Below, in pieces: positions 16,983-45,756 of a DNA stretch of 60,224 nucleotides (the stretch's first letter is position 1; the number at the start of each line of letters is the position of its first letter). The translations under genes and the position numbers were made by a program. Location of the stretch: NCBI GenBank assembly GCA_031431315.1, contig JANPDE010000456.1, positions 1-60,224 on the forward strand, given 5' to 3'. The DNA is from Haliea sp. GTDB lineage: Bacteria; Pseudomonadota; Gammaproteobacteria; Pseudomonadales; Halieaceae. Below the pieces are notes generated by a model, which saw nothing but the letters and a program-made list of their open reading frames with translations, was not told the DNA's origin and did no database searches.

Positions 16983-17771
16983 ATGGATTTAACTGTTGTA
17001 GTGCTTACCTACAATGAAGAGCCTAACATCTCCAGAAGTCTGCACAGTGTCAGATGGGCTGAACGCATCATTGTTATAGACAGCGGCAGTTCGGACCGCA
17101 CGGTCGCTATTGCCAATTCGTTTCCCAATGTCACCGTGGTTTCCAGGGTTTTTACCACTCACGCAGAACAGTGGAACTTTGGGCTGGAAGAAGTAAAAAC
17201 ACCCTGGACACTTGCGATGGATGCCGACTACCTGTTCCCCGAAACCGCGCCCGCTGCCATACGTTCTGCAATGCTCAAGGACAATGCAGGATTCAGCGCC
17301 GCCTTCCACTATCTGGTTTATGGAAGAAGGGTCAAAGGAAGCGTTCTACCGCCGAGGACAATTCTGTTTCGCACGGGACATGGCAGATACTGGCAAGACG
17401 GACATACCCAGCAACTGCAGTTGCAGGGGAGTCTTGGCCTGCTACCGTTTCATGTGTCGCACGACGACCGCAAGACCGTGTCGCGCTGGTTGCAATCCCA
17501 GATCAGCTACGCTCGCCAGGAAGCGGAGAAGATTACATCCCGCCCTGGCACCGGGCTGGGCCGCAATGACCGAATTCGAAAGGCCATCGTGCTCGCGCCG
17601 CCACTGATATTCCTGTTGGTGTATGTATTGCGTGGCGGGTTTCTCAGCGGTTGGCGCGGACTCTTCTACGCACTGCAGCGCCTGGTGGCCGAGTTACTGC
17701 TGAGTCTCTTTTTAATCGATGTGAAACTGCAATCGCTTGTCCAGCAAAGCGATTCGCAGGGATCGCAATGA
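16983..17771 (+). CDS. GT2 glycosyltransferase (WaaE-like)
   Basis: MDLTVVVLTYNEE, IDSGSSD, MDADY; start reassigned to the ATG at 16983. Confidence 0.85.
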   Translation: MDLTVVVLTYNEEPNISRSLHSVRWAERIIVIDSGSSDRTVAIANSFPNVTVVSRVFTTHAEQWNFGLEEVKTPWTLAMDADYLFPETAPAAIRSAMLKDNAGFSAAFHYLVYGRRVKGSVLPPRTILFRTGHGRYWQDGHTQQLQLQGSLGLLPFHVSHDDRKTVSRWLQSQISYARQEAEKITSRPGTGLGRNDRIRKAIVLAPPLIFLLVYVLRGGFLSGWRGLFYALQRLVAELLLSLFLIDVKLQSLVQQSDSQGSQ

Positions 17772-17805
17772 ATGTGCCCATGACTGGGTCGACAGGGAAA
17801 TCACC

Positions 17806-19563
17806 ATGTCGGTAATACTCGGGCTGAATGCCTTCCATCCCGACTCAGCTGCCTGCCTTGTGGTGGACGGCAAGCTGCTGGGCGCCGTTGCGGAGGAACG
17901 CCTGGGTGAACGCCTCAAGCACAGTTCAGCGTTTCCAGCATATGCTATTCGCCATCTGCTGGAAGATTCTGGTCTGCGTCTTCGCGACGTAACCCACGTT
18001 GCGATGGCGCGCGACACCAATGCTAACCGTGCCGCAAAGATGTTATACGTGGCGCAAAAACCGATAAAAGCTGTCGGCGCGGTGGTAGAACACCTCAGTC
18101 GTAGTCGTAGAACCAAGAGCACCATACAGCAACTGGCCGAAGTCTGTGACGAGGACCCAGCTGCGGTCAGGTTCGAAACCGTTGGCGTTGAACATCACCT
18201 GGCCCACGTGGCCAGCGCCTATTATCTCTCACCCTTCGAGGAACTGACGGCGGGCTTTTCCTACGACGCATCCGGTGATTTCGCCAGCATGATGGCGGCC
18301 CGGTGCGAAGGTAGCCGCATAGAAGTGCTGGACCGGGTAACGCTGCCGGATAGCCTTGGTTTCTTCTACACCGCGTTATGCCAGTTCATCGGTTTCGACG
18401 GTTTTGGAGAGGAATATAAGGTGATGGGCCTGGCGCCCTATGGAGAAGACCGCTACGCAGATGTCATACGGCAACTGGTGCGACTTGAGCATGACAGCTG
18501 GTACCGGCTTGGCAAGGGCTTTTTTGGCATGCATGAAGGTGCCGAAAGCGGCGCGGTTGACGAGCGGAACCAGATTGTGATGGACCGGTTGTATTCGCGC
18601 CGTTTGCAGGATTTACTGGGAGAACCCCGGTTGCGCAATGATCCATTGACACAACGTGAGAAGGACATCGCAAGGTCCACCCAGGTGCGCTTCGAGGAGG
18701 CCGCCCTCCACTGTATGCGTCGGTTACACGCGCTGGTTTCGACCGGGCGCCTGGCGATGGCAGGCGGCTGTGCCCTTAACGGGGTGGCAAACGCACGCAT
18801 CCTGCGCGAAACCCCCTTTGTCACCCCCTACCTGCAGGCGGCCGCGTCCGACGATGGCGCCTGCATGGGTGCAGCGTTCTGGGTCTGGCACAACGTATTG
18901 GGCCGGACCGAACGCTTTCATATGAAACATGCTTTCTGGGGCCCCGGTTACTCGGATGAACGGATGCGTAACGTTGCCGAAGGCAGCGGCTTTCCCTTGC
19001 AGGCCTGCAGGGACGAGAGTGAACTCGTTGACGTAGCGGCAGGAATGATCGCCGAAGGCATGGTTGTAGGCTGGTACCAGGGCCGCAGCGAGTGGGGACC
19101 GCGCGCGCTCGGTAACCGCTCGATTCTGGCCAACCCGACCCTGCCCACGATGAGAGACACCATCAATGCCAAGATCAAGCGTCGCGAGTCCTTCAGGCCT
19201 TTTGCTCCCAGCGTTCTCAAGGAGGACGTAGCAACTTACTTCGAGCAGACCGTAGACAGCCCGTTCATGATGCACGTGGTCAAGATCAGGCCCGAATGGC
19301 GTGAGCGTTTGCCGGCCGTCACTCATGTGGACGGCACCGGGCGGTTGCAAACTGTGGAGCAGGACAACAATCCGCTTTATCACCGGTTGATCACCGCGTT
19401 CCGGCGCAGGACAGGTATTGGCCTTGTACTCAACACCAGTTTCAACGAGAACGAACCGGTAGTTGACACGCCGGAACAGGCATTCGATTGCTTTCGGCGC
19501 ACGGACATGGACGCGCTGTGCCTGGGTCGTTATGTGTTGGTGAAGGAGCGGATTGCTGAATGA
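17806..19563 (+). CDS. NodU/CmcH-family O-carbamoyltransferase
   Basis: ILGLNAFHPDSAA, EER, EHHLAH, EYKVMGLAPYG, AGGCALN, EWGPRALGNRS, LNTSFN. Confidence 0.92.
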   Translation: MSVILGLNAFHPDSAACLVVDGKLLGAVAEERLGERLKHSSAFPAYAIRHLLEDSGLRLRDVTHVAMARDTNANRAAKMLYVAQKPIKAVGAVVEHLSRSRRTKSTIQQLAEVCDEDPAAVRFETVGVEHHLAHVASAYYLSPFEELTAGFSYDASGDFASMMAARCEGSRIEVLDRVTLPDSLGFFYTALCQFIGFDGFGEEYKVMGLAPYGEDRYADVIRQLVRLEHDSWYRLGKGFFGMHEGAESGAVDERNQIVMDRLYSRRLQDLLGEPRLRNDPLTQREKDIARSTQVRFEEAALHCMRRLHALVSTGRLAMAGGCALNGVANARILRETPFVTPYLQAAASDDGACMGAAFWVWHNVLGRTERFHMKHAFWGPGYSDERMRNVAEGSGFPLQACRDESELVDVAAGMIAEGMVVGWYQGRSEWGPRALGNRSILANPTLPTMRDTINAKIKRRESFRPFAPSVLKEDVATYFEQTVDSPFMMHVVKIRPEWRERLPAVTHVDGTGRLQTVEQDNNPLYHRLITAFRRRTGIGLVLNTSFNENEPVVDTPEQAFDCFRRTDMDALCLGRYVLVKERIAE

Positions 19564-21544: not shown

Positions 21545-22048
21545 CTAACCCGGCGCTGCCAGCACGTCCCGGTCCAGCGCCACGCTGGTGCTGCGGCCCA
21601 GCAGTTCTATCAGCAGCAGCGCCCGGTCTTCGCTCTGGGGCATCTGGTAGACGCCGCTCAGCCCGGCGAAGGGGCCATCCAGAATATCCAGGGTGTCGCC
21701 GGGCTGGTGCGGCCAGGTCTCTCCCTGGCGTAGCCGGCTCTCGGGGTCTTCACACTGCCGGAGATAGTCGATCACGCTGGCCGGCACCGGCCGCAGCAGC
21801 TGGCCAAAGCGCACCAGTCCCGCCACGCCCTGGGTGGAGCGTACCGGGGCGAGACTGCTCTCGCCCGGGTCGACACGCATGAACAGGTAGCGCGGGAACA
21901 GGGGCTCCACCACCTTCGTCCACTTATCTCTTCTACGTTTGCGTAGCAGGACTTTCGGCAGATAGGTTTCAAAGTGCTGCCGTTGCAGGTGCAGCTCTGC
22001 AATGGCTTCTTGCCTGGGCTTGGTATGTACTGCGTACCAGCACTTCAT
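21545..22048 (-). CDS. rfaH: RfaH/NusG-family transcription antiterminator
   Basis: WYAVHTKPRQE, EPLFPRYLF, VRSTQGV, KOW motif GDTLDILDGPFAG, LIELLGR. Confidence 0.88.
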   Translation of the reverse strand: MKCWYAVHTKPRQEAIAELHLQRQHFETYLPKVLLRKRRRDKWTKVVEPLFPRYLFMRVDPGESSLAPVRSTQGVAGLVRFGQLLRPVPASVIDYLRQCEDPESRLRQGETWPHQPGDTLDILDGPFAGLSGVYQMPQSEDRALLLIELLGRSTSVALDRDVLAAPG

Positions 22049-22152
22049 ACCGTGTAATTCATGGGGCTTCCCGCAGTGTGCAGTACGGTCTCATCCGAGA
22101 CTTCCTGGGAAATCACATCGGGCGATAAGATTACGGTCTGATTGAGGTTCAT
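22045..22152 (-). pseudogene. Truncated PqqD/RRE (lasso B1) remnant, 35 codons
   Basis: MNLNQTVILSPDVISQEVSDETVL matches 22 of the first 24 aa of the PqqD at 42665-42946, then diverges; stop overlaps the rfaH ATG. Confidence 0.85.
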
Positions 22153-22185
22153 GTCTTTATGTGCAGGTGCCACTGTACGCACCAC

Positions 22186-22223
22186 AGTGTACCGCAGCGG
22201 GAAAGTCAGACAACACGTAATGA
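22186..22223 (-). promoter_or_regulatory. Putative sigma70 promoter TTGTCT-N16-TACACT with upstream TCATTA
   Basis: Same motifs and spacing recur upstream of the PqqD paralog at 42979-43016. Confidence 0.5.
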
Positions 22224-22269
22224 CAGGACACAGTGCCCGCAAGAGATGGCCCTGATAATTTGGCGTGCT

Positions 22270-23193
22270 TCATCTACTGCTGGTTGCTGTCCGGGTGTGA
22301 GCACAAATCGCCGTATAGGTTTCGTGCATCCGTTCCATGTTCCAGGGGCGGCTCACCCGGTACACCAGGCTTTGGTCTGCCAGCTGGGCCAGCCAGCGCA
22401 GGCGCTGCTCCTGCAGGAAGTGGAAGCTGAACAGGTAGTTGGGCAGCAACTGCTCGAATTTGCGGAAGCCGGTGACTTCGGTGATCTCGATGCCGGCATG
22501 CGGCCCGGTCTGGTCGAGTGCGTAAAAGGCGTGGATCGGCCGCGCCTGCCGGGCAAAGTGCTCTATCGGGTTGCCCAGCACTTCAAACTGGCGGAAGGGC
22601 CGGTGGTGCGGGTGCGAAGGCACTGCATAATAGCGCCCTTGCTCGAGGAAGGTGGCCACCTTGTCGTCCGACAGCATGGGGTGGCCCTGCCTGAGGAAGT
22701 AGTCCCCCAGCGTGGACTTACCCCCCATGGAAGGCGCGATGAACAAAATTGGCTGCTCGTCCACCTCCACCGCGGCTGCGTGTATGAAGTCATAGCCCCG
22801 CTCCAGAGTGAGGTGCAGGGGCAGGAAGATGTGGACAAACCAGAAGACGAGTAAGGCCCGGTTACCCTCGTCACCGAGTTGGTAATAGATGACGGAGTCG
22901 CCCCCGGTCCAGCTGAAGTTCGCCACGCCTTCCACCTGCAGACACCACGGCTGGCCTGCGGCGCTGCGGGCCGCTTCGCGGTCGGTGCGCAGGTACAGCT
23001 CGCGGCCGTGGGTTGAATAGAAGGGCATGGTCTCGGCCAAGTACTCCGGGCGCGGCGCCGTCGCATCGGTGCCCGCCCGCCTCAACTCCAGCGTGCTATG
23101 CTCGCCCGGCGCTACTGCGCTCACCGGCGTCGGGCGATCAAATAGCGCAAATTCGCAGTCAACCTTCACCCCGTAGAGGCAGTGCTCAATCAT
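22270..23193 (-). CDS. HPr-kinase-related kinase (lasso peptide kinase-like)
   Basis: IHAAAV, Walker A variant APSMGGKSTL, LSDD; ATG 23193 overlaps the B2 stop. Confidence 0.8.
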   Translation of the reverse strand: MIEHCLYGVKVDCEFALFDRPTPVSAVAPGEHSTLELRRAGTDATAPRPEYLAETMPFYSTHGRELYLRTDREAARSAAGQPWCLQVEGVANFSWTGGDSVIYYQLGDEGNRALLVFWFVHIFLPLHLTLERGYDFIHAAAVEVDEQPILFIAPSMGGKSTLGDYFLRQGHPMLSDDKVATFLEQGRYYAVPSHPHHRPFRQFEVLGNPIEHFARQARPIHAFYALDQTGPHAGIEITEVTGFRKFEQLLPNYLFSFHFLQEQRLRWLAQLADQSLVYRVSRPWNMERMHETYTAICAHTRTATSSR

Positions 23194-23699
23194 GCGCGCC
23201 GCTCCCAGCTGAAGGTCGAAACCACGGTGAACTGCTCGTGGCCCGCCCTGCCATTCACAATATCGTCGCCACATTGCAACCAGGCATGGGCGGAAAGGCC
23301 CGTGGGGTCGTCAGTACGTTCACAGCCCCGGCGCACCCCCAGGTAAAACTGGCCGGGTATGTTGCGCTTCGCCAGCAGGCGCTGCGCCACCAACACCTGT
23401 GTCAGGCATAAGCTCTGCCAGGGGGTCACTCTACTGGCGGCGGCGACCAGCCGGCCTATGGCCATCGCCTCGTCGCGCATCCGCGGCGGCAGGGCAGGCG
23501 GCGGCATGGCGAGGAGATGGTGCTGCAATTTCCTGGACAGGCGCTTGAAGGAGACCAGCAGGACAGCCGCCCGGTACCAGCCCAGCATGAACCAGGCCTG
23601 CGCCAGCAGGAGCTTGTGGCGGGTGGGCAGGGCGGTGAATTTCTGCAGCCTGTAGGGCATGGGTGGCGCAGGTGGGCCTGTGTTGTGTAGGCTGGCCAC
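23190..23699 (-). CDS. Lasso peptide B2 leader peptidase (transglutaminase-like)
   Basis: SLCLTQ, LGVR, AHAWLQCGD giving a Cys-His-Asp triad; alternative start ATG 23660. Confidence 0.9.
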   Translation of the reverse strand: MASLHNTGPPAPPMPYRLQKFTALPTRHKLLLAQAWFMLGWYRAAVLLVSFKRLSRKLQHHLLAMPPPALPPRMRDEAMAIGRLVAAASRVTPWQSLCLTQVLVAQRLLAKRNIPGQFYLGVRRGCERTDDPTGLSAHAWLQCGDDIVNGRAGHEQFTVVSTFSWERRA

Positions 23700-23787
23700 T
23701 TTAGCAAAAGCACTAGTGCAATAGAATCAGCTGGTGACGTACTGCGGGATTTTGTTTCCCGAGCATACCCCACAAGGATACACACCA

Positions 23788-25611
23788 TTGAGTGGCTTCA
23801 TTGCTATGGTCAACGCCAGTGGCGCAACAGTTGACCGCAACTTGCTGGAAACGCTGACCGCTTCATTGCAGTGCCGCGGTCCTGACCGCCAGCAGATATG
23901 GGCGGACGGCCCGGTTGGGCTTGGCCATACGCTGTTTCGCACCACCCGTGAGGCACAGTACGAAAACCAGCCGGCAAGCCTTGACGGCATGGTGTGGGTC
24001 ACTGGCTGCATACGGGTTGATGGCCGCCAGGCGCTTGTCGAGGAACTGCGCCTGAATACGCCACTTTCACTCGCAAGCACCCCCGATTCAGAACTGGTGC
24101 TGCACGCCTACCACACTTGGGGTGAGCACTGCCTGGATCACCTGCTGGGTGACTTTGCCTTTGCCTTGTGGGACGGACACAAACGGCAGTTGTTTTGCGC
24201 GAGGGACCGCTTCGGCATGCGGCAGCTTTACCACGCCCAGGTGGGCGACACCTGCATTATCAGCAACAGCATGCATTGCATGCGCCAACACCCCGCCATT
24301 TCCAGTGAGCTGAACGATCAGGCCATCGGAGATTTTCTGTTGTTCGGTGACCACATCTGGACCGATAAATCCCAGACGGCCTTCAATGACGTAAAAACCT
24401 TACCACCCGCTCATCAACTGACTTTCTGCGCCGACAGAACGACAATCGGGCGCTATTGGGATCTCCCGACGGATGTGCCCTTGCTCAAGTATCGTCGCGA
24501 AGAACAATACCTGGAGCATTTTCGATCCGTATTCACCCAGGCAGTGGACGATCGCTTGCGTTGTGATGACGTGGTGATTTCGATGAGCGGGGGGATGGAC
24601 TCCTCCGCGATAGCCGCCACCGCCACAAAAATTCGCCAGCAAGGCGGCCGGGATTTTGGCCTGCAGGCGATTACTGTCGTGTATGACAAACTGCATCACT
24701 GTCAGGAAAGACATTACTCCGGCCTGGTGGGGGAGCACCTTGGTGTTCCGATTCAATACATCGTCGCAGATCATCACCCGCTGCTGGCGCCTGCGATGCA
24801 ATGGACGCGTCCACTAGAGTACTATCAGCCCAGCATATGGATAGAGATGGCCCAACAAACCCTGCTATCCGCGCGCGTTATGCTGATCGGCGCTGCCGGC
24901 GACAATCTGCTGTGCTATTGGCCGTTCTTACCCACTATGGCGGAGGCCAACCCACTGCAGACGCTGCGCCAGATTTTCCAACTCAAAGCCCGCTACGGAA
25001 GAATGCCCGGGCTGGGAACGGGGTTGAAAGCCCGCTGGAAAAGGATGGCAGGTAAACCGGCCGGAAAAAGAAATCCCCCTTACCCCTATCCACCCTGGCT
25101 GAATCAAGACCTGGCAGACAGGTTTGCAATGCAGGATCGATGGGATGCTCTATGGGCAACCTTGTTTACTGGCGCAACCAGGCATGGGCTGCATCGTGAC
25201 GCGCTGATGTCACCCAACTGGAACACGGACGATTTGGCTATGACCGGGTCTTTAATAGCGCCTGAACAGCGCGACCCTTATCTGGATCTCAGGCTGGTAA
25301 ATTTCGTGCTGTCCCTTCCGCCCATGCCATGGCTGTATCAAAAACATATCCTGCGACAAGGCGTCAAAAACTTATTACCAACAGCTGTTATAGAAAGACC
25401 GAAGCAGGCTTTGGGTGATTTGGCGAGTTCACTTATCGGACAAGCGGCATTCGATACGCAGCCTCCGAGTGGTGACCTGGATAAAGTTGACCTGGATAAA
25501 TATGTTAACGCAGCTGCTTTCAGAAAAGCCATTGCTGGGATTGGTGATGGAGGCCTGAATTATGTAAACCTGCGGCCCCCGATATTAAGACAGTGGCTCC
25601 AAATGCTATGA
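23788..25611 (+). CDS. Lasso cyclase (asparagine-synthetase-like) C1
   Basis: TTG start after AAGGA gives MSGF, with Ser in place of the catalytic Cys; RGPD, GDFAFALWD, SMSGGMDSS, RDPYLD; adjacent to B2 and a precursor. Confidence 0.85.
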   Translation: MSGFIAMVNASGATVDRNLLETLTASLQCRGPDRQQIWADGPVGLGHTLFRTTREAQYENQPASLDGMVWVTGCIRVDGRQALVEELRLNTPLSLASTPDSELVLHAYHTWGEHCLDHLLGDFAFALWDGHKRQLFCARDRFGMRQLYHAQVGDTCIISNSMHCMRQHPAISSELNDQAIGDFLLFGDHIWTDKSQTAFNDVKTLPPAHQLTFCADRTTIGRYWDLPTDVPLLKYRREEQYLEHFRSVFTQAVDDRLRCDDVVISMSGGMDSSAIAATATKIRQQGGRDFGLQAITVVYDKLHHCQERHYSGLVGEHLGVPIQYIVADHHPLLAPAMQWTRPLEYYQPSIWIEMAQQTLLSARVMLIGAAGDNLLCYWPFLPTMAEANPLQTLRQIFQLKARYGRMPGLGTGLKARWKRMAGKPAGKRNPPYPYPPWLNQDLADRFAMQDRWDALWATLFTGATRHGLHRDALMSPNWNTDDLAMTGSLIAPEQRDPYLDLRLVNFVLSLPPMPWLYQKHILRQGVKNLLPTAVIERPKQALGDLASSLIGQAAFDTQPPSGDLDKVDLDKYVNAAAFRKAIAGIGDGGLNYVNLRPPILRQWLQML

Positions 25612-25624
25612 AGCAAAGCGGCTT

Positions 25625-25795
25625 CTATGATCCCTGGCCGGGGGGAATCATAGTTCCCATGCTGTTGCCGGGGGTGTCATTTATGGTGTCAGGGCCGTTA
25701 TTCTGCGTAGTACGCGTTATGGACCCGAATGAGGTCAATGTAGGGGTGTCGTATGATTTTTTACAGGGTTTGCGAGTATCTGTTTCAGGTGTCAT
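25625..25795 (-). CDS. Lasso precursor A1 (56 aa); predicted core NNGPDTINDTPGNSMGTMIPPGQGS
   Basis: Leader YDTPTLTSFGSITRTTQ fits YxxPxLxxxGxxxxxT with Thr at -2; Asp9 acceptor; AAGGGA upstream. Confidence 0.85.
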   Translation of the reverse strand: MTPETDTRKPCKKSYDTPTLTSFGSITRTTQNNGPDTINDTPGNSMGTMIPPGQGS

Positions 25796-25931
25796 CGTTG
25801 CGGTCCCTTGCAGATTTTGCACGGTGTCTGACTGATGGTCCCAGCAAAGCCGGTCGTTTGCAAGGAAAGCCCTGCACAGGACCCCACCAAATTTCCAGTA
25901 TACGATTTTGAAAGCCGGGTTGGGTTGTGCA

Positions 25932-27074
25932 CTAACTAAATCGCTCAACCAGATCCTGCACAAACCGCAATGCTTCCGTATGTTCCTTGAAAAGCGCTCT
26001 ACGCTGCTCCTGTAATTCAGACGCAAGGTGCTCCACAGTCGATTCACCGTTCATCCGGCCGAGCAGCCAGAGCGCAGCCTCGCCTTTTGTACCGAGCGCC
26101 GGATGGTAATGCAGTGTTTTCTTTTGCATGTCTTCGAGCCTGACTGGTTGCGATAAAAACGAACTCTGGCGTTGGTGCTGGTCGCCCAGACGCGTGCTCC
26201 AGGACCATTCCCCCCGCTCAGGCCGCTTCAGGCTGAATCCGAGGCGATCTCCCTTTACCACCGGCAGCGGTTGGGCCAGGGGCATGAAGACCTGGTTCCA
26301 GTGGGTTTTGCAGCTTTCCCCGTCGGTCGACAGCCACTCGTCCACCAGCCGCATCTGGAACCAGCCCATCCAGCCGTGGCAAACTCCATTGCGCTGAACA
26401 GTGACTTCCACCTGGCTGTCGCATGCGGCTTTTGTCGCCGTGTTGAAATCCAGCTCCAACACCGCGACGGGCTCGGCCAGCCGCTGGGCCTGCATATGCT
26501 TCGCGCTGTCATGCCGCATGTAGTTTGCCGCGTAGGCCCGCAGCGCGCTGTAATCCAGCTCCGGCAAACCCTGCTCGTTACACACCCGGGGGAAGTCACC
26601 CCAGGACGCGACATGCTTGTCGTAGTAGGCGGGCGCAGTAACGGGAACGACTTCCATTCTCCCGCGGTCGGGAATCAGCCGGCCGCCGGGTGCCAGATAA
26701 TGGTCGCGGGCGTAAAAGAGCGATGGCAGCAGGTCTTCGCTGAGCAGGAAATTGCCGGTGAACACCGACACGATGACATCGACCCTGGTATCAAGCTGCA
26801 GTTCCTCCGCCCGGGCACGGATACATTCCACCGCGTCGAGCTGATTGTCGGCTGCGACGGTGCGGGCCACTTCAACGGCGACCGTGGGTTCAACCAGGTA
26901 CACCTTCGCTGCCCCCAGCCGCGCGGCAATAAGCCCGAGAACTCCAAGTCCCGCCCCCAGGTCCATGACCGTCGTGTCCGGGGTAATTACCTTTTTCAGG
27001 GCGCTGGTGTAGGCGGCATTGCGGGTGCCGTCAAACACCATGCCGCGGTGCCCCACTACATCTTTATAACTCAT
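25932..27074 (-). CDS. PRMT-fold (protein arginine methyltransferase-like) SAM methyltransferase
   Basis: HRGMVFDGTRNAAY, VMDLGAGLG, VYLVE, VDVIVS, ARDHYLAPGGRLIP and THWNQ align with PRMT1 motifs. Confidence 0.85.
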   Translation of the reverse strand: MSYKDVVGHRGMVFDGTRNAAYTSALKKVITPDTTVMDLGAGLGVLGLIAARLGAAKVYLVEPTVAVEVARTVAADNQLDAVECIRARAEELQLDTRVDVIVSVFTGNFLLSEDLLPSLFYARDHYLAPGGRLIPDRGRMEVVPVTAPAYYDKHVASWGDFPRVCNEQGLPELDYSALRAYAANYMRHDSAKHMQAQRLAEPVAVLELDFNTATKAACDSQVEVTVQRNGVCHGWMGWFQMRLVDEWLSTDGESCKTHWNQVFMPLAQPLPVVKGDRLGFSLKRPERGEWSWSTRLGDQHQRQSSFLSQPVRLEDMQKKTLHYHPALGTKGEAALWLLGRMNGESTVEHLASELQEQRRALFKEHTEALRFVQDLVERFS

Positions 27075-27207
27075 GATTTTCCGGCGCTTCCTTCAACTAT
27101 CATGGCGGGTAGCTTTCGTACTGCCCTTTTGTGTACGCTGGCCACTCTACCAAGCGCCTCCTGCAAAGACAAAAAGAGTCACTCTGGCGGCGCAGCTCGG
27201 GACCACC

Positions 27208-28833
27208 ATGAATTTCTCGGTACTGCTGACCTACATCACCCCGCATCGCCGCGTGCTTATGGCGGTGCTGGGCCTGTTGCTGGCGGGCAGCCTGGTGTCG
27301 CTGGCCAACCCCTGGATGGCGGGGCTGCTGACCGCCAGTGTGTTGGGCCAGGGTGAGCATGAGCCGAAGCTGATCCTGGCCCTGTGGCTTGGCCTGATGG
27401 CCACAACCAGTCTGATCGGCTTTTTTACCAGCTACCGCATTGGCACCACGGGGGAGCAACTGACAGCGGGGCTGCGCGAGCGGCTTCACCAGCACCTGCA
27501 GGCACTGCCCCTGGCTTACTACCAGCGGCGTCGGCCGGGCGAAACGCTGACCCTGCTCAGTGCCGACGCCGCCATTATCAGCAGTTTTGTGACCGCCACC
27601 CTGGTGCAGCTGCTGCCTGCCCTGCTCACCTTTATCGGGGCCTTTATCCTGATGGCATGGCTGGCCCCTGTCATCGCCCTGCTGGTCGTGCTGTTCCTGC
27701 CGGCCTACGTGCTTGCAATGAAGATCATGGGGCGGCAGCTGCGGCCACTGTCACGCGCATGGGTCGATGCTAACAGCCGCGTGGTGTCGGTGGTACAGGA
27801 AAACCTCGACATGCTGCCCGCCATCAAGGCCTTTACCCGCGAACAACACGAGCAGGGGCGATTTGAAGCGGTCAACCGGCAATTGCTGGCGCTATCGCAA
27901 CGGCAGCTGCGCTTACAGTCCCTGCTCTCACCCGCGATCGGCCTGCTGGGCGGGATCGGGCTTGTCGCCCTGCTGTGGATGGGCACCGCGCAGATAGAAA
28001 GCGGCCAGTTGGCGCCGTCACAGATGGTCAGCCTGCTGCTCTATGCCATGCTCCTGATGAGCCCGCTGAGCACCCTGGCCGACATTTACGGGCAGGTGCA
28101 GCGCACCCGCGGCAGCGCCGAGCGGATCATCGAATTCCTGGGGGAGCAACCTGAACCGGCGGATGAGGGCAACCGGGTGCTCGACCATGTAAAGGGCCGC
28201 ATAGAGTTCCGCGATGTCAGCTTCGGCTACCCGGGGCGCCCGCCCGTGCTCAGCCACTTCAACCTGGAGATATCCGCCGGTGAAACACTGGCGCTCACCG
28301 GCCCCAATGGCGCGGGCAAATCCACGCTCGCCCACCTGCTGATGCGCTTCGCCGACCCGGACGAAGGCGCCGTGATGATCGATGGCGTGGACACCCGCGC
28401 GGCCACCATCACCAGTGTGCGTGCCCAGATCGGCCTGGTGGCGCAGAATGTACTGCTGCTCAACGGCAGCGTGGCCGAGAATATCGCCTATGGGGAACCG
28501 ACAGTGAGCCGGGAAAAAATCGAGGCCGCCGCCAAAGCCGCCCATGCCCATGCCTTTATCACGCAACTGCCCGATGGTTACGATACGGTGATCGGCGACC
28601 AAGGCGTAAGGCTCTCTGGCGGCCAGCGCCAGCGCATATCACTGGCCCGCACCCTGCTGAAGGACCCGCCCATCCTCATCCTGGATGAGGCCACAGCCAT
28701 GTTCGACCCTGAGGGGGAGAAGGCGTTTATTGAAGAGTGTCGGGAGATGTTGGGGCGCAAGACGGTGATTTTAATTACTCATCGGCCAGCCAGTTTGGCG
28801 TTGGCGGACAGGACGATTAGAATTGAAACATGA
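27208..28833 (+). CDS. ABC exporter, fused TMD-NBD (lasso D-like)
   Basis: Hydrophobic N-terminal domain; GPNGAGKST, LSGGQRQR, LILDEAT. Confidence 0.9.
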   Translation: MNFSVLLTYITPHRRVLMAVLGLLLAGSLVSLANPWMAGLLTASVLGQGEHEPKLILALWLGLMATTSLIGFFTSYRIGTTGEQLTAGLRERLHQHLQALPLAYYQRRRPGETLTLLSADAAIISSFVTATLVQLLPALLTFIGAFILMAWLAPVIALLVVLFLPAYVLAMKIMGRQLRPLSRAWVDANSRVVSVVQENLDMLPAIKAFTREQHEQGRFEAVNRQLLALSQRQLRLQSLLSPAIGLLGGIGLVALLWMGTAQIESGQLAPSQMVSLLLYAMLLMSPLSTLADIYGQVQRTRGSAERIIEFLGEQPEPADEGNRVLDHVKGRIEFRDVSFGYPGRPPVLSHFNLEISAGETLALTGPNGAGKSTLAHLLMRFADPDEGAVMIDGVDTRAATITSVRAQIGLVAQNVLLLNGSVAENIAYGEPTVSREKIEAAAKAAHAHAFITQLPDGYDTVIGDQGVRLSGGQRQRISLARTLLKDPPILILDEATAMFDPEGEKAFIEECREMLGRKTVILITHRPASLALADRTIRIET

Positions 28834-28843
28834 TACCGAGTGA

Positions 28844-30580
28844 TTAGTTTAAATCCATCGACATGTTCAAAACCAGAATGGACCTTATCGCGGTAGTTAT
28901 ATCCACTATCAGTTCCTCCGGCGTTCCTGATTCTCTACGCGCTATTTTGTCCAGCAAAATATTTAGTTTAGCCCAGTCAATAAACGGGTTGTCCCTCGCG
29001 CCGGCCGGATGATCCGCATGCCACCGGGACAGGGCATCAACGCATATCTGAATGGCTTTCGCTATACGAACGGGTTCATTTTTGTGGATTGAAGCCCAGA
29101 CCTCCTGTGGTAAAAGGTCTCGTACTACATAGCGAAAAAGATATCGGGGATGGCCCTTGCGACGAAACATTTGTGCAGGTAGTCCCAACGCAAATTCCAC
29201 AATTCGCTTATCTAACAGCGGATAACGATACTCCACGCCAGCCCGCCGACCAGAGGCAGCCCAGGACTCCAGTCGACATAACACATGTCCCGCTTCCCAA
29301 TAGGCCAGCTGACTCTTTCGAACGGAATACCTGGGGTGCTGATCTACCGCGAAGGGCAGTGCACGAGCGCATTCAGCCAGGGCAGCAGACGCGGCACCCA
29401 GATAATCGGGTACGACCTGCCTTGAGATTAATCTCCGGGGCAGAAATGGCATCAATAGTTCGCGGCAAGCCAACGAAAAAAAGCTGCGAAAATGGTGATC
29501 ATTTTCGGCAGTCGCATGCCAAAGGTCGCGCAGGGTCGACAGCAGATTTCCCGCTAAAAGAGTTTCCGCATAGCGTTGATTTCCGTAATGTGTAATCAAC
29601 TCATCGCCGCCCCAGCCGGACAGAATTATTGAGCCTCCACTCGCGACTACTTCTTCCCTGACTGCGAACTCATACCAGCAATCCGCGGTATCACCGCCTG
29701 CTATGTTCAAATTCCGGAGCAACGACAGCATGCTGTCACTGTTGAATTCACAATAGTGCAAGTCAATATCGTACCGATTGGCTACGGATATCCCGGTGGC
29801 CCATTCCGGGTCGAGTGCCTCGGATGCGTTTTGCGGGGGAGCCAACCAACTGTATCCGGTGACAGAGGGTCCAGCTTTAGTCGCCTGCATTGCTGCCAGT
29901 GCTGCGATTGCAGAGGAATCGAGCCCGCCACTGAGGTGGACAGCCAGAGCGCCATGCCTGGGGATCCGGCAAGCAACCGCCTCCAGTAGTAGCTGGTGCA
30001 GCCTATCGGCGTAATCCTTCAGGGTAGGCAACATTACTCCAGGGCTATCCTCGGGGCGCCAGTAGATCCATTCCCTGATTTGACTGTCCTCGACGGTCAT
30101 GGCGCTGGCCCGGGGGAGCTTTCTTACTTTGTCGAAAAATGTCAGTCTGGAATCACGCAACTCACCATCGCGTAGATATAACGCCACCGCTTCGCGACAA
30201 ACACGCTTGGGTACAGGGCCACAATTTGTAATCGCAGATATGTCATCGGAGACAATCGCTGTAGCGTCATCTGCAAAGAAGTAGAAAGGCACTACGCCAA
30301 TATGGTCTCGGGCACAGAACACCCAATCATTAACCGGATCATCAATTGCGAACGCAAAATCACCCAGCAGGAATTCAGGGGTTTTTACTCCCCATTTCTG
30401 GTATGCAAGGAGGATAAGGGCATCATCAGAAAGGGCGTTAAGCGCCAGTGAAGGTATGCACAGCAGCTGGGCTAACTCGGCTCGATTGTCCAGCCGCGCT
30501 TTCGCGTCTATCGTTAGGGTTCTGGTAGCGGGAAGTGCAATTGAACGATGGGATCGTTGCCTCGCGAAACGGCCGAACAT
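28844..30580 (-). CDS. Lasso cyclase (asparagine-synthetase-like) C2
   Basis: No N-terminal Cys and shortened Ntn domain; ARLDNR, GDFAF, HLSGGLDSS, SGWGGDE, RYPLLDKR; 36 bp downstream of precursor A2. Confidence 0.85.
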   Translation of the reverse strand: MFGRFARQRSHRSIALPATRTLTIDAKARLDNRAELAQLLCIPSLALNALSDDALILLAYQKWGVKTPEFLLGDFAFAIDDPVNDWVFCARDHIGVVPFYFFADDATAIVSDDISAITNCGPVPKRVCREAVALYLRDGELRDSRLTFFDKVRKLPRASAMTVEDSQIREWIYWRPEDSPGVMLPTLKDYADRLHQLLLEAVACRIPRHGALAVHLSGGLDSSAIAALAAMQATKAGPSVTGYSWLAPPQNASEALDPEWATGISVANRYDIDLHYCEFNSDSMLSLLRNLNIAGGDTADCWYEFAVREEVVASGGSIILSGWGGDELITHYGNQRYAETLLAGNLLSTLRDLWHATAENDHHFRSFFSLACRELLMPFLPRRLISRQVVPDYLGAASAALAECARALPFAVDQHPRYSVRKSQLAYWEAGHVLCRLESWAASGRRAGVEYRYPLLDKRIVEFALGLPAQMFRRKGHPRYLFRYVVRDLLPQEVWASIHKNEPVRIAKAIQICVDALSRWHADHPAGARDNPFIDWAKLNILLDKIARRESGTPEELIVDITTAIRSILVLNMSMDLN

Positions 30581-30616
30581 CTAGCAGCTATCTTTTTACC
30601 ACCTCGAAAATCGTTA

Positions 30617-30805
30617 TCAGGAACAGCCGAGGGTCATCTGACCAGGAGCGCACGGTGCCAAAAAATTGAAGAAGTTTTCGCCACCCGGAATAAAGGTACC
30701 ATTTGCAGTTTCACTCAAGCCTAAAGTGCTTACAACGGGCGTAGTCCACACTTTTTTGGTCACGGGTCCCGAGTCGCGGCGCTCAATGTTTACTTGATTA
30801 CTCAT
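30617..30805 (-). CDS. Lasso precursor A2 (62 aa); predicted core NGTFIPGGENFFNFLAPCAPGQMTLGCS
   Basis: Leader KKVWTTPVVSTLGLSETA is paeninodin-like (KKxWxxPxxxxLxxxxT) with Thr at -2; Glu9 acceptor; GAGGTGA RBS. Confidence 0.82.
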   Translation of the reverse strand: MSNQVNIERRDSGPVTKKVWTTPVVSTLGLSETANGTFIPGGENFFNFLAPCAPGQMTLGCS

Positions 30806-30942
30806 GGCTCACCTCTCACCTTTCACCGCTCACGAAATTCCATCTCGTAGTCTACACAATACTTACTCAAATCCTATAGCACAAAAAATCGGTACTGCCA
30901 ACTTAACTTCTCAGGTCCTGGAGTCATTGGGGTCTCAGCTCT

Positions 30943-30954
30943 CAAGCTACCGCC
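30943..30954 (-). promoter_or_regulatory. ops element (RfaH recruitment site) GGCGGTAGCTTG
   Basis: Exact GGCGGTAGnnTG match, intergenic, on the coding strand about 140 nt upstream of precursor A2; rfaH homolog in the cluster. Confidence 0.55.
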
Positions 30955-40520: not shown

Positions 40521-42668
40521 CTAAGCCGATGAGACCTCGACCGATACCCCGTTCACCGCGGCGTTCCCCGACAGTGCGTCCAGCACCAGATCATCGGTGA
40601 TGTCGTTGCAGCTTACGCCTGCATGGCGCGCCGCGACAGACAGTCGTATCCCTGCGCGGTCATGTCCGAAGCCGTGCGGCAGGCTGACCACGCCGGGCAT
40701 GATTTCCTCAGTGGCTTCCACGACAACCTGCAGTGTCCCCACACGCGAACGCACGCTGACTTCACTGCCTTGGGCAATGCCCCGCTGCTGCAGGTCATCA
40801 GGGTGCATCAACAGCGTACAGCGATTCTTGCCCTTCACGAGTCGCCGGTAGTTGTGCATCCAGGAGTTATTGGAACGCACATGACGGCGGCCAATCAATT
40901 GCAGCGGTCGCAGTTGCGGTTGATTGGATAATGCTGCTGCGGTGATGGGAAACTCACGGCGCACGCGGGCGAGGTCTGCCAGGGGTTCCGGCGTGTCACA
41001 ACGGATAGTCTTATCTTTGGTTTGCAGGCGAGCGGGCAATTGTGGTTGTAGCGCACCGAGGTCGATCCCGGAAGGATGCTCGCGTAATTTTGCCAGCGAC
41101 ATACCCTGCGTCGCATAGGGGCCGAATTGCAGTCCCAGATCGATGATCTGCGCCGGTGCCACGCTTGGCTGTGGTTCATTGCCCAACAACTGCGCCACGC
41201 GATTGCCCAACTCCGTGAAGATTTCCCAGTCGTGCAGGGCGCCGGCGGGCTTGTCGAAAACAGCTTCATTGAACCGCGCGGTATTGCGCACAGCATTGGC
41301 ATGAAAGGCAAGGTCGTAGTGATCGTGCTCCAGCGGCGATGTGGGCGGCAGAATAATGTCCGCGTGGCGCGTGGTTTCATTGAGATACGGGTCCAGCGAC
41401 ACCATGAATTCAAGCTGCGCCAGGGCTTCATCCAGTTGCCGTCCGTTGGGCGTGGACATGACCGGGTTGCCGGCGCCCGTGAATAGCGCGCGAATCTGGT
41501 GCTCTCCCGGCGTGGTGATCTCTTCGGCGAGTGTGGAAGCGGGAAACTCGCGATCGAATTCCGGCAGGCCGCGCACGCGACTGTGGTGGCGGGCAAAACC
41601 GCCGGGACTGCTGGTGCTCACCTGGTCTATCGCGGGCAGGGTGAAAAGCGAGCCGCCCGGAAGATCCAGATTGCCGGTGGCTATATTGATCAACTGAATC
41701 AGCCACTGGTTAAGGGCGCCATAGGCCTGGGTGGAAACGCCCATGCGGCCGTAGCAGATGGCCGCCCCGGCAGCGGCAAACTCCCGAGCCAGCCGGCGGA
41801 TGGTGTCGGCATCGATCTGCGTGTGCTGCGCGGCGTACTCCGCAGTGAAATCGTCAATGGCGTGACGCACCACGTCCAGCCCGCTGGTGAAATCGCGCAG
41901 GTGTGCGGTATCGTCCAGACCTTCACTCAGGATGGTGTGCAACACTGCCAGCAGGAACAGCGCGTCAGTGCCGGGCTTGATAAAATGGTGTTCACTGGCG
42001 ATTTGCGCGGTTTCCGTATGGCGTGGATCTAGCACGACCAACTTGCCGCCGCGCGCCTGCAGCGCCTTGATACGCTTTTTCACGTCCGGCACTGTCCAGA
42101 TACTGCCATTGGAAGCAATGGGATTGGCACCCAGCATCAGGAGGTAGTCGCTGCGGTCAATATCGGGTATGGGAAACAGGAACTTGTGGCCGAACAACCA
42201 CAGGGCTGCCAGATGGTGGGGCAGTTGATCCACCGAGGTGGCGGAGAAGCGGTTATTGGTGCGCAAGTGCCTGAACAGGTTGCCCTGGTGGGTCAGCATG
42301 CCGTGGTTGTGCACGGAGGGATTGCCCATATAGACGCCGATGGCGTGCACGCCGTTTTTTTCGTGCACAGCAACCAGTCCCTGTGCCGCGCTGTCCAGTG
42401 CCTCGTCCCAGCTGATCTCCTGCCATTGCATTTCCCCAGCAGCATTGGTAGTGCGCCGCAGCGGTTGCCGCAGGCGGTCCGGGTCCTCGTGGAAATCCTG
42501 CAAGGCCATCGCCTTGGGACAGACGTGGCCACGGCTCAGTGGGTCATTTTTGTCGCCCTTGATTGAGAGGATTTGATCGCCCTCGGTTTCTATCACCAAT
42601 CCGCAGATCGCCTCGCACAGGTGGCAGGCCCGAAAATGTGTTTTTCGTTCTGCGGACGCCTGACTCAT
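40521..42668 (-). CDS. Molybdopterin (bis-MGD) oxidoreductase with N-terminal 4Fe-4S motif, substrate unknown
   Basis: CHLCEAICG...GHVCPK, GANP, ETTRHADIILP, C-terminal molydopterin-binding domain (VSLPHGFG). Confidence 0.88.
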   Translation of the reverse strand: MSQASAERKTHFRACHLCEAICGLVIETEGDQILSIKGDKNDPLSRGHVCPKAMALQDFHEDPDRLRQPLRRTTNAAGEMQWQEISWDEALDSAAQGLVAVHEKNGVHAIGVYMGNPSVHNHGMLTHQGNLFRHLRTNNRFSATSVDQLPHHLAALWLFGHKFLFPIPDIDRSDYLLMLGANPIASNGSIWTVPDVKKRIKALQARGGKLVVLDPRHTETAQIASEHHFIKPGTDALFLLAVLHTILSEGLDDTAHLRDFTSGLDVVRHAIDDFTAEYAAQHTQIDADTIRRLAREFAAAGAAICYGRMGVSTQAYGALNQWLIQLINIATGNLDLPGGSLFTLPAIDQVSTSSPGGFARHHSRVRGLPEFDREFPASTLAEEITTPGEHQIRALFTGAGNPVMSTPNGRQLDEALAQLEFMVSLDPYLNETTRHADIILPPTSPLEHDHYDLAFHANAVRNTARFNEAVFDKPAGALHDWEIFTELGNRVAQLLGNEPQPSVAPAQIIDLGLQFGPYATQGMSLAKLREHPSGIDLGALQPQLPARLQTKDKTIRCDTPEPLADLARVRREFPITAAALSNQPQLRPLQLIGRRHVRSNNSWMHNYRRLVKGKNRCTLLMHPDDLQQRGIAQGSEVSVRSRVGTLQVVVEATEEIMPGVVSLPHGFGHDRAGIRLSVAARHAGVSCNDITDDLVLDALSGNAAVNGVSVEVSSA

Positions 42669-42946
42669 GGGGCAATCTGCAGTCGAATAAGGCCGCGCTG
42701 GCAGGCATCCGTGAGAAAGGCTTCAAGATCGGCGCCCAGTTGCGGTCCCTCAACCTCGTATTCTTCCAGCAGGGTGTTGTAGATGATGCGCAACTCACCG
42801 CTTTCCCGGATCAACTGCCAGATGCGCGTGCTCACCGCGTCCAGGCCGAAGTAGCACTCGCTTTCCAGGTCGAGTAGTACGGTTTCGCCGGAAACTTCCT
42901 GGTAGATCACGTCTGGTGAAAGGATTACGGTTTGATTCAGGTTCAT
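42665..42946 (-). CDS. PqqD-family RiPP recognition element (lasso B1), 93 aa
   Basis: QEVSGETVLLDLESECYFGLDAVSTRIWQLI...EEYEV...DLEAFL; GGAGGAG upstream; stop overlaps the oxidoreductase ATG. Confidence 0.9.
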   Translation of the reverse strand: MNLNQTVILSPDVIYQEVSGETVLLDLESECYFGLDAVSTRIWQLIRESGELRIIYNTLLEEYEVEGPQLGADLEAFLTDACQRGLIRLQIAP

Positions 42947-43075: not shown

Positions 43076-43984
43076 ATGTTGAACGCTATTGCCGAACTCA
43101 ACCGCATTACCTCAGGACCGCGACCCTTGTCCGAAGCCGATCTGCTGCGCCTCGTTGTGTTGCGACATGAAATTGGGGCCAAGCATGTTCGCAACACGGG
43201 TGCGCCACTGCCAACCACGCCGACGCAGGACCTTTTTCCCGGTGTCGTGGGGGCGCCTGAGATCTCCGGAGCCGAGTTGACCGCCGCGCATGTGGCCTCG
43301 GGCCTGCGCCACCATGGCGCCCTCGTGGTCAGGGGTCTGGTGGCGCCAGCGGAGGTTGAGCGGCTCTGTGGCCTCATTGATGGTCGAGACTGGTCCCAGC
43401 CGCTGGTTCCGACCGACGAACAGGGCCAGCCGAGCCAGGGTTCCGCCCCCATGAAGTGCTCGGCGGCCGCGTTGCAGGGGCTGGTGGAGGCCTACCACAA
43501 TGCGGGCATGGGCGCTGTGATGACGGACTACCTTGGCGAAGCCCCTGTGTTGCTGTCCGAGCGGCTACAGATAGACCGGCAGATACTAAAGTTAGGGCTG
43601 CCGTGGCATCAGGACGGTGCTTTCTTCGGGGGCAACATTCGTGCCGTGAACAGTTTTCTCTCTCTGGACGAGTGCGGCACTGATGTCACGGGGCTGTCGG
43701 TGGTGACGCGTCGCCTGGATGAGGTCTTGGGGGTCGAGGCCGGTCAGCGTGCTCCGCTGAGCTACGGCAATTCCTTCGACCACAAGGAAGTGGTTGCCAT
43801 GGCCGGCATCGGTCGGGTTGTTACGCCGATCCTCGGGCCTGGCGACGCCATTTTTATTGACGAGATGACCCTGCACCGCACGGCCAAACCGCCGAAAAAC
43901 CCCCGGCCCCGTACGTGGGCGGTAACCTGGTTTTGCGCGCCGTCGCGGTTTCCGGAGCAACGTCACCCGCTCTGGTTTGGTTGA
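43076..43984 (+). CDS. PhyH-like Fe(II)/2-oxoglutarate dioxygenase
   Basis: PWHQDG (HxD), PGDAIF, LHRT and a downstream Arg. Confidence 0.8.
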   Translation: MLNAIAELNRITSGPRPLSEADLLRLVVLRHEIGAKHVRNTGAPLPTTPTQDLFPGVVGAPEISGAELTAAHVASGLRHHGALVVRGLVAPAEVERLCGLIDGRDWSQPLVPTDEQGQPSQGSAPMKCSAAALQGLVEAYHNAGMGAVMTDYLGEAPVLLSERLQIDRQILKLGLPWHQDGAFFGGNIRAVNSFLSLDECGTDVTGLSVVTRRLDEVLGVEAGQRAPLSYGNSFDHKEVVAMAGIGRVVTPILGPGDAIFIDEMTLHRTAKPPKNPRPRTWAVTWFCAPSRFPEQRHPLWFG

Positions 43985-45669: not shown

Positions 45670-45756
45670 TGGTGCCCAGAAGAGGACTTGAACCTCCACG
45701 CCCTTGCGAGCACCAGCACCTGAAGCTGGCGTGTCTACCAATTTCACCATCTGGGC
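45670..45756 (-). tRNA. tRNA-Leu(CAG)
   Basis: GCCCAGA...TGGTAGAC...CCAGC-TTCAGGT-GCTGG, long variable arm, GTTCAAGTC, TCTGGGC-A-CCA; 87 nt. Confidence 0.97.

Follow-up and report, generated by a model that had tools for sequence, protein, structure and literature searches.

What is a methyltransferase with the fold of the eukaryotic protein arginine methyltransferases (PRMTs) doing among genes for lasso-peptide biosynthesis? The question is raised by positions 21545 to 30954 of contig JANPDE010000456.1 from Haliea sp. (GCA_031431315.1). The window, that is, the whole stretch of 60,224 nt that was analysed, is contig C456 of a 4.6-Mb assembly that is 95.5% complete; more than half of the sampled words occur in three runs of one freshwater-sediment study, two of which are possibly the source of the assembly. 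An earlier note on this DNA had described the block as a two-precursor lasso cluster with a kinase, a PRMT-fold methyltransferase and RfaH, embedded in a surface-polysaccharide locus. All of the parts it listed are present, as judged by hidden Markov model (HMM) families, motifs and open reading frames (ORFs), and the two-precursor lasso cluster was confirmed on these grounds. The block very probably is a genuine lasso cluster, of the paeninodin/SyanK-like type that bears a kinase. We think the chances about even that it makes two exported lasso peptides with a C-terminal Ser predicted to be phosphorylated and tail Met residues S-methylated by the PRMT-fold enzyme.

Methionine in the peptide tails and the PRMT-fold enzyme

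One precursor rule, a pattern of our own, was applied to all fetched loci (L numbers; genomes are given G numbers), and loci with the methyltransferase were compared with those lacking it, the controls being drawn from B2 searches of the family, order and class. Where the locus held the enzyme, 35 of 43 cores had Met in the tail, against 3 of 24 where it did not; Met accounted for 15.9% and 2.9% of tail residues, respectively, against a background of about 2.3%. Two of the three Met cores without the enzyme belong to genomes that encode it elsewhere, and the third lies on a 2.9-kb contig. Once those two were moved, 33 of the 36 enzyme-bearing loci and 2 of the other 19 had a Met-bearing core. 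Met gave the strongest association of the 20 residues (p 2e-9, uncorrected for kinship), although such Fisher p values overstate the case because kin are not independent. Lys showed the opposite tendency (8/36 loci with the enzyme versus 12/19 without, p 0.004 uncorrected), Arg showed no association (15/36 versus 8/19), and the leaders held no excess of Met. The kinase occurred in both groups (30/36 and 18/19).

The association was also seen within the Halieaceae family only (Met in 16/18 with the enzyme versus 1/10 without) and within one genus (4/4 versus 0/5), where a profile search of the five Met-negative genomes, four of them 92-99% complete, gave no match to the enzyme. On a cyclase tree of 52 loci, 49 rows are in agreement, and enzyme and Met each require 9 changes. 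Two loci whose precursor calls are likely spurious, L093 and L028, and one with a short cyclase fragment, L026, were left out of this tree and kept in the core and per-locus residue counts. The number of tail Met residues reaches 11 in related cores. Because the enzyme occurs almost only where the peptide tails carry Met, it likely methylates Met, and we hold this assignment to be moderately probable.

The methyltransferase (380 aa; 25932..27074, minus strand) is predicted to use S-adenosylmethionine (SAM) and matches PF22528 PRMT_C with 45 bits. Its model, built from an alignment of 109 sequences, has a predicted local distance difference test (pLDDT) score of 94. Model residues 1-306 match eukaryotic PRMTs (Foldseek E 1e-25 to PRMT6/2/3). 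The superposition on PRMT3 gave a Z of 32.4 with a root-mean-square deviation of 1.8 Å over 289 residues, the next other fold reached a Z of 14.7, and the top 15 structural matches are PRMTs throughout. As modelled, the methyltransferase is a true PRMT fold. Like PRMT3, CARM1, PRMT2 and PRMT6 (Z 30-32, 25-27% identity), it combines a Rossmann domain with a beta-barrel and keeps the second double-E Glu and the THW loop; Glu113 and the THW-loop residues His258 and Trp259 are invariant in the 109 homologues. Unlike the eukaryotic enzymes, it is bacterial and lasso-linked, carries an extra C-terminal helical tail, sits beside cores that are free of Arg, and has Val in place of the first double-E Glu. 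Of the 109 homologues, 105 have Val at position 104 and the other 4 have Ala, and Glu was found there in none of the 91 rows of lasso-linked loci. According to the portion of PMC9469100 that was accessible, the double-E glutamates chelate the Arg guanidine. None of the 11 more distant bacterial PRMT-like proteins with this Glu retained has B1, B2 or a kinase as a neighbour, and the only synthetase lying nearby is Cys-bearing. Arg as the substrate was rejected, because the first double-E Glu is gone and the enzyme shows no association with Arg.

A metagenome scan, whose patterns favour this PRMT-like subfamily, found lasso genes in 27 of 28 methyltransferase loci of at least 8 kb and in 66 of 80 overall. 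The C-terminal ~70 residues of the enzyme are helical. Weak PqqD matches were obtained for 9 of 40 such tails, the window's own not among them; these matches (E 0.0025-0.08) are under the cut-off and cover the helical half only, and hhalign against the RiPP recognition element (RRE) gave a probability of 0.9%. A Foldseek search with a single-sequence model of the tail returned nothing at E 0.001, and that model was at odds with the full one. The idea that the tail is a complete RRE thus found no clear backing in these comparisons, beyond the weak PqqD matches. A predicted complex of the methyltransferase, SAM and the A1 precursor scored 0.01, gave no verdict and is unused as evidence here.

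One interpretation of these results is as follows. The remote B1 would bind the leaders, and B2 would cut two residues after the leader Thr, as in established lasso biochemistry. C1 would then close the ring of A1 between Asn1 and Asp9, and C2 that of A2 between Asn1 and Glu9, with A2 additionally forming a disulfide in its tail. The kinase would phosphorylate the C-terminal Ser of the precursors, the PRMT-fold enzyme would transfer the SAM methyl group to the Met sulfur to give S-methylmethionine sulfonium, and the ATP-binding cassette (ABC) pump would export the products. The monoisotopic masses calculated for the predicted products are 2453.06 for the A1 lasso and 2533.03 for its phosphorylated form, and 2869.27 for the A2 lasso with its disulfide and 2949.23 when phosphorylated as well. 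The loss of a carboxylate and the gain of a hydrophobic residue by the change of Glu to Val104 may suit a neutral thioether. The sulfonium would confer a permanent positive charge on the tail and take the place of the Lys/Arg tails seen in clusters without the enzyme. The Lys anticorrelation and the position of the genes led us to the speculation that sulfonium tails replace Lys/Arg tails and bind anionic surface polysaccharide. A wider version, to which we give somewhat less than an even chance, is that a widespread bacterial PRMT branch is an iterative peptidyl-Met S-methyltransferase, with poly-sulfonium tails (up to 11 Met) replacing Lys/Arg and tethering the peptides to anionic polysaccharide, and that it marks a large group of sulfonium lasso peptides, so far undescribed, made by bacteria of sediment, fresh water and soil.

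The accessible literature offers one precedent for the modification. Longipeptin A is a lasso peptide that carries an S-methyl-Met sulfonium (PMC10664482), described as one of few S-methylations among RiPPs, peptides made on the ribosome and modified after translation (PMC11285071), and in those sources, seen in part, lasso Met S-methylation is otherwise known from no other peptide. The enzyme tentatively assigned to it, LopH, belongs to an actinobacterial P450 cluster, has a predicted fold like a domain of human MTHFR and serves a peptide with one Met; compared by LopH's description only, the window enzyme differs in having a PRMT fold. StspM/LasF and the PIMT homologues LihM and TceM are alike in tailoring lasso precursors or products with SAM, and unlike in that they O-methylate the C-terminus or a ring Asp; they are not described as PRMT-like in the excerpts available. 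The earlier note had not recognised this combination of tailoring enzymes among characterised clusters, and the kinase/PRMT-fold pairing was likewise not found in the accessible parts of the lasso reviews. A literature search, outside which most subscription journals lay, returned no paper on a PRMT-fold lasso enzyme or on this cluster; the metanodin study, in the part available, cloned split-B clusters with unspecified methyltransferases, and its figures or supplements, or mining tables published elsewhere, could include this family (PMC12670498). The new part is the methyltransferase and its proposed target, which the earlier note had not named, the cluster type and the neighbourhood being of kinds already known.

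If the proposed target is correct, an uncharacterised bacterial PRMT-like family whose homologues are now mislabelled as PrmA or RNA methylase would gain a substrate, and it would be evident that a single exchange of Glu for Val can turn the PRMT scaffold away from guanidinium and towards thioether. The one-off modification of longipeptin A would become a common one, and the enzyme a tool for placing sulfonium groups on peptides. More speculatively, S-methyl-Met peptides of marine and sediment Halieaceae would touch organosulfur cycling.

Precursors, cyclases and the remaining lasso genes

Read from right to left, the gene order is A2(-), C2(-), ABC(+), methyltransferase(-), A1(-), C1(+), B2(-), kinase(-), B1 remnant(-) and rfaH(-). 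The mixed orientation is kept in relatives: the methyltransferase and ABC genes are divergent, with C2 and A2 behind them, in L020 and L022, and C1 and A1 are convergent in L021, L026, L027 and L030 as well. Precursor A1 (56 aa; 25625..25795, minus strand) has a weak match to NF033528 lasso_cyano (E 2e-6). Its predicted 25-aa core starts Asn-Asn-Gly-Pro, has a ring from Asn1 to Asp9, two tail Met and a C-terminal Ser, and contains no Arg, Lys or Cys. Precursor A2 (62 aa; 30617..30805, minus strand) was recognised from a five-member alignment, in which leader K/W/P/L/T and core G2, E9, two Phe and the first Cys are invariant. Its predicted core of 28 aa starts Asn-Gly-Thr-Phe, with a ring from Asn1 to Glu9, two tail Cys, one Met and a C-terminal Ser, and is likewise free of Arg; A2 and its four relatives share the leader Thr, Glu9, the two tail Cys and the terminal Ser. 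The precursors have leaders of the form [YW]xxPxL with Thr at -2. When the window and related loci were scanned with a leader pattern, 18 strict matches were obtained, and Asp or Glu was found at core positions 7-9 in 15 of these by hand count (p about 4e-6 at an assumed 0.3). The pattern demanded no acidic residue, so precursors of the A1 and A2 types are beyond chance. The short ORFs with lasso leader motifs pointed out by the earlier note are conserved, in that both have relatives with the leader Thr and a ring Asp/Glu.

The tail of A2 is predicted to form a disulfide, as in class IV. This likeness is one of Cys pattern, both Cys lying in the tail; the class IV peptide pandonodin has a tail-tail disulfide (PMC13352647, seen in part). 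Asn at ring position 1 is common to A1, A2 and metanodin, the reported precedent in the accessible part of PMC12670498. Compared with class IV and metanodin, A2 would add a phospho-Ser and possibly a sulfonium. Tails with 7-11 Met, arranged as (Met-Gly)n or poly-Met, were seen in the precursors L020:3506, L022:4942, L034:7339 and L087:14160; they recall Gly-Met-rich chaperonin tails and copper-binding segments.

Residue roles in lasso B and C enzymes are general background here. The leader peptidase B2 (23190..23660, minus strand) matches NF033537 with 88 bits (cut-off 33) and PF13471 above cut-off; its motif residues are Cys85, His125 and Asp132/133, and it had no match among solved structures, where C1 and C2 matched enzymes of the asparagine-synthetase type only. 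Cyclase C1 (607 aa; 23788..25611, plus strand, TTG start) scores 314 bits with NF033535, has Ser where amidotransferases have the catalytic Cys, and shows a ratio of nonsynonymous to synonymous substitution rates (dN/dS) of 0.18 against L021. C2 (578 aa; 28844..30580, minus strand) scores 260 bits and was identified by the tree and an alignment as well. Its short N-terminus was considered as possible damage, which was rejected because the L022 homologue has the same. C2 falls in a starred clade with cyclases that adjoin A2-type precursors, C1 in a different one, and C1 likely pairs with A1 and C2 with A2.

An RRE remnant had been claimed by the earlier note, and it is present, with an intact copy elsewhere in the window. 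The remnant (truncated B1; 22045..22152, minus strand) is homologous over the first 24 codons only, with 92% identity to the intact B1 over these 24 aa. Measured against the module-linked B1 of L001 in G020, the remnant has a dS of 0.06 (24 codons only), and the intact window B1 one of 0.79. Mis-assembly at this point is unsupported, since a contig from run X2, possibly the assembly's own source run, crosses the junction of the remnant and rfaH without differences. The intact B1/RRE gene (42665..42946, minus strand) matches PF05402 with 57.9 bits and TbiB1 (5v1u) with E 3e-11. Because the linked copy is truncated, B1 must be supplied from 12 kb away; a B1 away from the cluster is common in relatives, and the intact gene likely acts in trans.

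The HprK-like peptide kinase (22270..23193, minus strand) was identified by a weak TIGR04352 match (E 7e-5) and by its His-Lys-Asp-Asp motif (His138, Lys159, Asp176-Asp177), and the MsbA-like ABC exporter D (27208..28833, plus strand) by PF00664 and PF00005 (dN/dS 0.16 against L001). The methyltransferase, ABC, B2, kinase, intact B1 and C1 genes gave dN/dS values of 0.10-0.20 against their nearest relatives. Such low values across the gene set show purifying selection, in the past rather than currently. The paeninodin type (PadeK/ThcoK, SyanK, PsmK) shares with the window a split B1/B2, a cyclase, an HprK-like His-Lys-Asp-Asp kinase, cores with a C-terminal Ser and an ABC exporter; SyanK is a proteobacterial kinase, and the kinase motif is described in the same source (PMC9266682, seen in part). 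Unlike that type, the window has a gammaproteobacterial host, two precursor/cyclase pairs, a remote B1, no linked nucleotidyltransferase, Asn1 cores, the PRMT-fold methyltransferase and Met-bearing tails.

Alternative explanations and the position of rfaH

Several observations weigh against S-methylation of Met by a working cluster. The two groups of loci were gathered differently, one by the methyltransferase and the other by B2, and many enzyme-bearing loci gave no precursor call, so that their cores stand outside the comparison. The starred branches of the cyclase tree yield only 5 independent pairs, of which 3.7 go the same way, 0 the opposite way and 1.3 are tied; the sign test on these is underpowered (p 0.125). 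Absence of the enzyme from incomplete genomes is unproven, and a PRMT-like gene that is shorter and more distant is present in G136 and G738. Almost every core of both groups contains Asn (34/36 versus 18/19 loci), and an amide could be the target. Met is confined to the ring in L068 and missing from L130, whose loop is a variant with Asp, several clusters encode a further precursor that has no Met, and a C-terminal Ser is found in only 13 of 36 enzyme-bearing loci. C1 and C2 are below the NF033535 cut-off of 525, although lasso cyclase is their best family, the kinase matches no family above cut-off, and RNA run X20 yielded fragments of relatives only.

One could envision, alternatively, a working lasso cluster in which the PRMT-fold enzyme acts on an Asn/Gln amide, the C-terminal carboxylate, the phosphate installed by the kinase, a Cys thiol or a non-peptide, while the Met-rich tails of the same lineages would bind metal or scavenge oxidants. 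Asn and the kinase are indeed present in 34/36 and 30/36 enzyme-bearing loci, C-terminal O-methylation is a known lasso modification (PMC9266682, seen in part), Met-rich segments are known copper binders according to sources seen in part, and the tree-corrected test is not significant. However, loci without the enzyme have Asn, Ser, C-terminal Ser and the kinase at least as often as those with it, and Cys occurs in only 15/36 enzyme-bearing loci, whereas Met separates the groups overall and, at 4/4 versus 0/5, in a single genus; we consider a target other than Met unlikely. Decay of the cluster, with no product made in this strain, is a much less probable explanation. The truncated linked B1 and the many partial copies in the family would fit it, as would the B2, ABC and methyltransferase genes with no precursor or cyclase nearby in L001 and L014-L018 and the frame-split cyclases in L020, L026 and L037. 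All of the other genes in the window are nevertheless full-length with intact motifs and low dN/dS (again, past selection), and the intact B1 lies 12 kb off, as is common in relatives. It is very improbable that C1 and C2 serve the glycan locus as sugar amidotransferases, the short ORFs being incidental. The two are indeed asparagine-synthetase homologues inside a glycan locus, with matches to TIGR03108. But the asparagine synthetase family scores lower than lasso cyclase for both (199 and 157 bits), neither protein starts with Met-Cys, and their SGGxDS loops are present. In a quick tree of 29 proteins the genome's four Cys-bearing asparagine synthetases form their own clade (SH-aLRT 100), 0 of the 25 cluster cyclases begin with Met-Cys, and each cyclase clade adjoins its own conserved precursor type. 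An AsnB/WbpS/TIGR03108-type role was rejected on the cyclase tree and the missing N-terminal Cys, and the identification of C1 and C2 as lasso cyclases by the earlier note holds.

A further proposal, which can coexist with Met S-methylation, is that the peptides are co-regulated with the envelope glycan, and perhaps attached to it, through RfaH/ops and glycosyl- and nucleotidyltransferases. The gene for RfaH (21545..22048, minus strand) matches TIGR01955 with 147 bits (cut-off 144.5), and a match to what we take to be the ops consensus lies ~140 nt upstream of A2 (30943..30954, minus strand), its function being doubtful; position 30954 is also where the earlier note ended the block. Of 20 family loci, 9 have O-antigen-ligase-like genes and export genes close by, a second PqqD gene with a nucleotidyltransferase fragment and a GT2 gene lies elsewhere in the genome, and the phospho-Ser of pseudomycoidin is glycosylated (PMC9266682, in the part available). 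In G020, the closest relative, however, rfaH comes directly after ugd with no lasso genes in between, and we therefore think that the lasso block and two sugar genes were inserted between ugd and rfaH in the window. The ops-consensus matches number 12 genome-wide against 13.8 expected, the match is not conserved upstream of the precursors in relatives, rfaH was not found in three of five genomes tested with the window's rfaH as query, and C1 and the ABC gene are on the opposite strand. For reasons of the G020 gene order, the chance number of ops matches and their lack of conservation, RfaH is not counted in the system and the co-regulation advanced in the earlier note is unsupported; regulation or attachment of this kind is improbable, slightly more so than decay. 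rfaH as part of the lasso module was rejected, and its place next to ugd in G020 indicates that it belongs to the flanking sugar-nucleotide operon.

Glycan flanks and related loci

Glycan genes lie on either side of the lasso block, as the earlier note had said. Relatives across Halieaceae likewise have the cluster next to exopolysaccharide genes. Such a setting is already published, paeninodin-like clusters being often found in capsular polysaccharide loci of Bacilli, where their function is unknown (PMC13381572, seen in part). B2 was found in 41 and the methyltransferase (E 1e-30) in 29 of 251 family genomes, and the named homologues of the latter are from Halioglobus and Pseudohalioglobus (Halieaceae). 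Of the 20 family loci fetched around the methyltransferase, 12 are by purA and 9 by an O-antigen-ligase-like gene. No plasmid match to the methyltransferase was found at E 1e-20, and a promoter/terminator scan remained at chance level (3 versus 4.8 and 11 versus 9.7). An identical ops-type 12-mer occurs in six family loci (L030:14851, L156, L161, L163, L165 and L166); the one in L030 stands just ahead of O-antigen-ligase/export genes, downstream of the lasso module, and is probably the real RfaH site.

Window positions 402-20538 are a long Wzm/Wzt-type glycan locus with many GT2/GT4 genes, several methyltransferases, a Cys-bearing AsnB (7327-9117) and a NodU-like carbamoyltransferase (17737-19563). 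Divergent from the intact B1 is a PhyH-like dioxygenase-fold gene (43076-43984, plus strand), for which the rest of the genome has five paralogue matches. Low-GC acyltransferase-3/SGNH and AlgX-like genes (38096-40153 and 44245-45471) lie near a tRNA-Leu gene (45670-45756). At the corresponding positions L001 holds LemA/M48-like genes and the lasso module, which suggests an insertion hotspot near tRNA-Leu; this module of G020, an ABC-methyltransferase-B2-kinase-B1 set of ~90% DNA identity, is without precursor or cyclase.

A second site in the genus, L014-L018 (G031, G026, G015, G025 and G027), has only ABC and B2 genes, joined in two cases by a methyltransferase shortened to ~320 aa. In these genomes precursor and cyclase lie elsewhere (L026, L032, L186 and L187), and the cluster appears to be split across the genome. 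A second PqqD-family gene (L189; G000:C2:1-1612), on a 1.9-kb contig, comes after a GT2 glycosyltransferase and the last part of an NTP_transf_5-like nucleotidyltransferase, a set that could act on phosphorylated peptides as in pseudomycoidin. In L033:5159-6447, from a complete Halieaceae genome with three cyclases in the cluster, an RRE and a radical SAM gene lie directly upstream of B2. Small ORFs matching Peptidase_S74, an intramolecular chaperone, lie in or beside clusters at L029:6137-6511, L031:12604-13023, L037:13109-13657 and L015:12087-12953, where the domain scan covered two of the in-cluster ORFs and that of L015; the L029 match follows a lasso-like leader and a Gly-rich core in the same frame.

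Among the PRMT-like relatives, L120-L127 and L131-L133 are stand-alone bacterial proteins with both double-E glutamates and THW. These stand-alone proteins are candidate true bacterial arginine methyltransferases, and three Halieaceae copies have a loop almost identical to that of eukaryotic type I PRMTs. L128, L129 and L130 represent a further lasso-linked subtype, in which THW is missing and Asp takes the first double-E position; the copy in L129 is part of a 581-aa open frame, and the L130 core is without Met.

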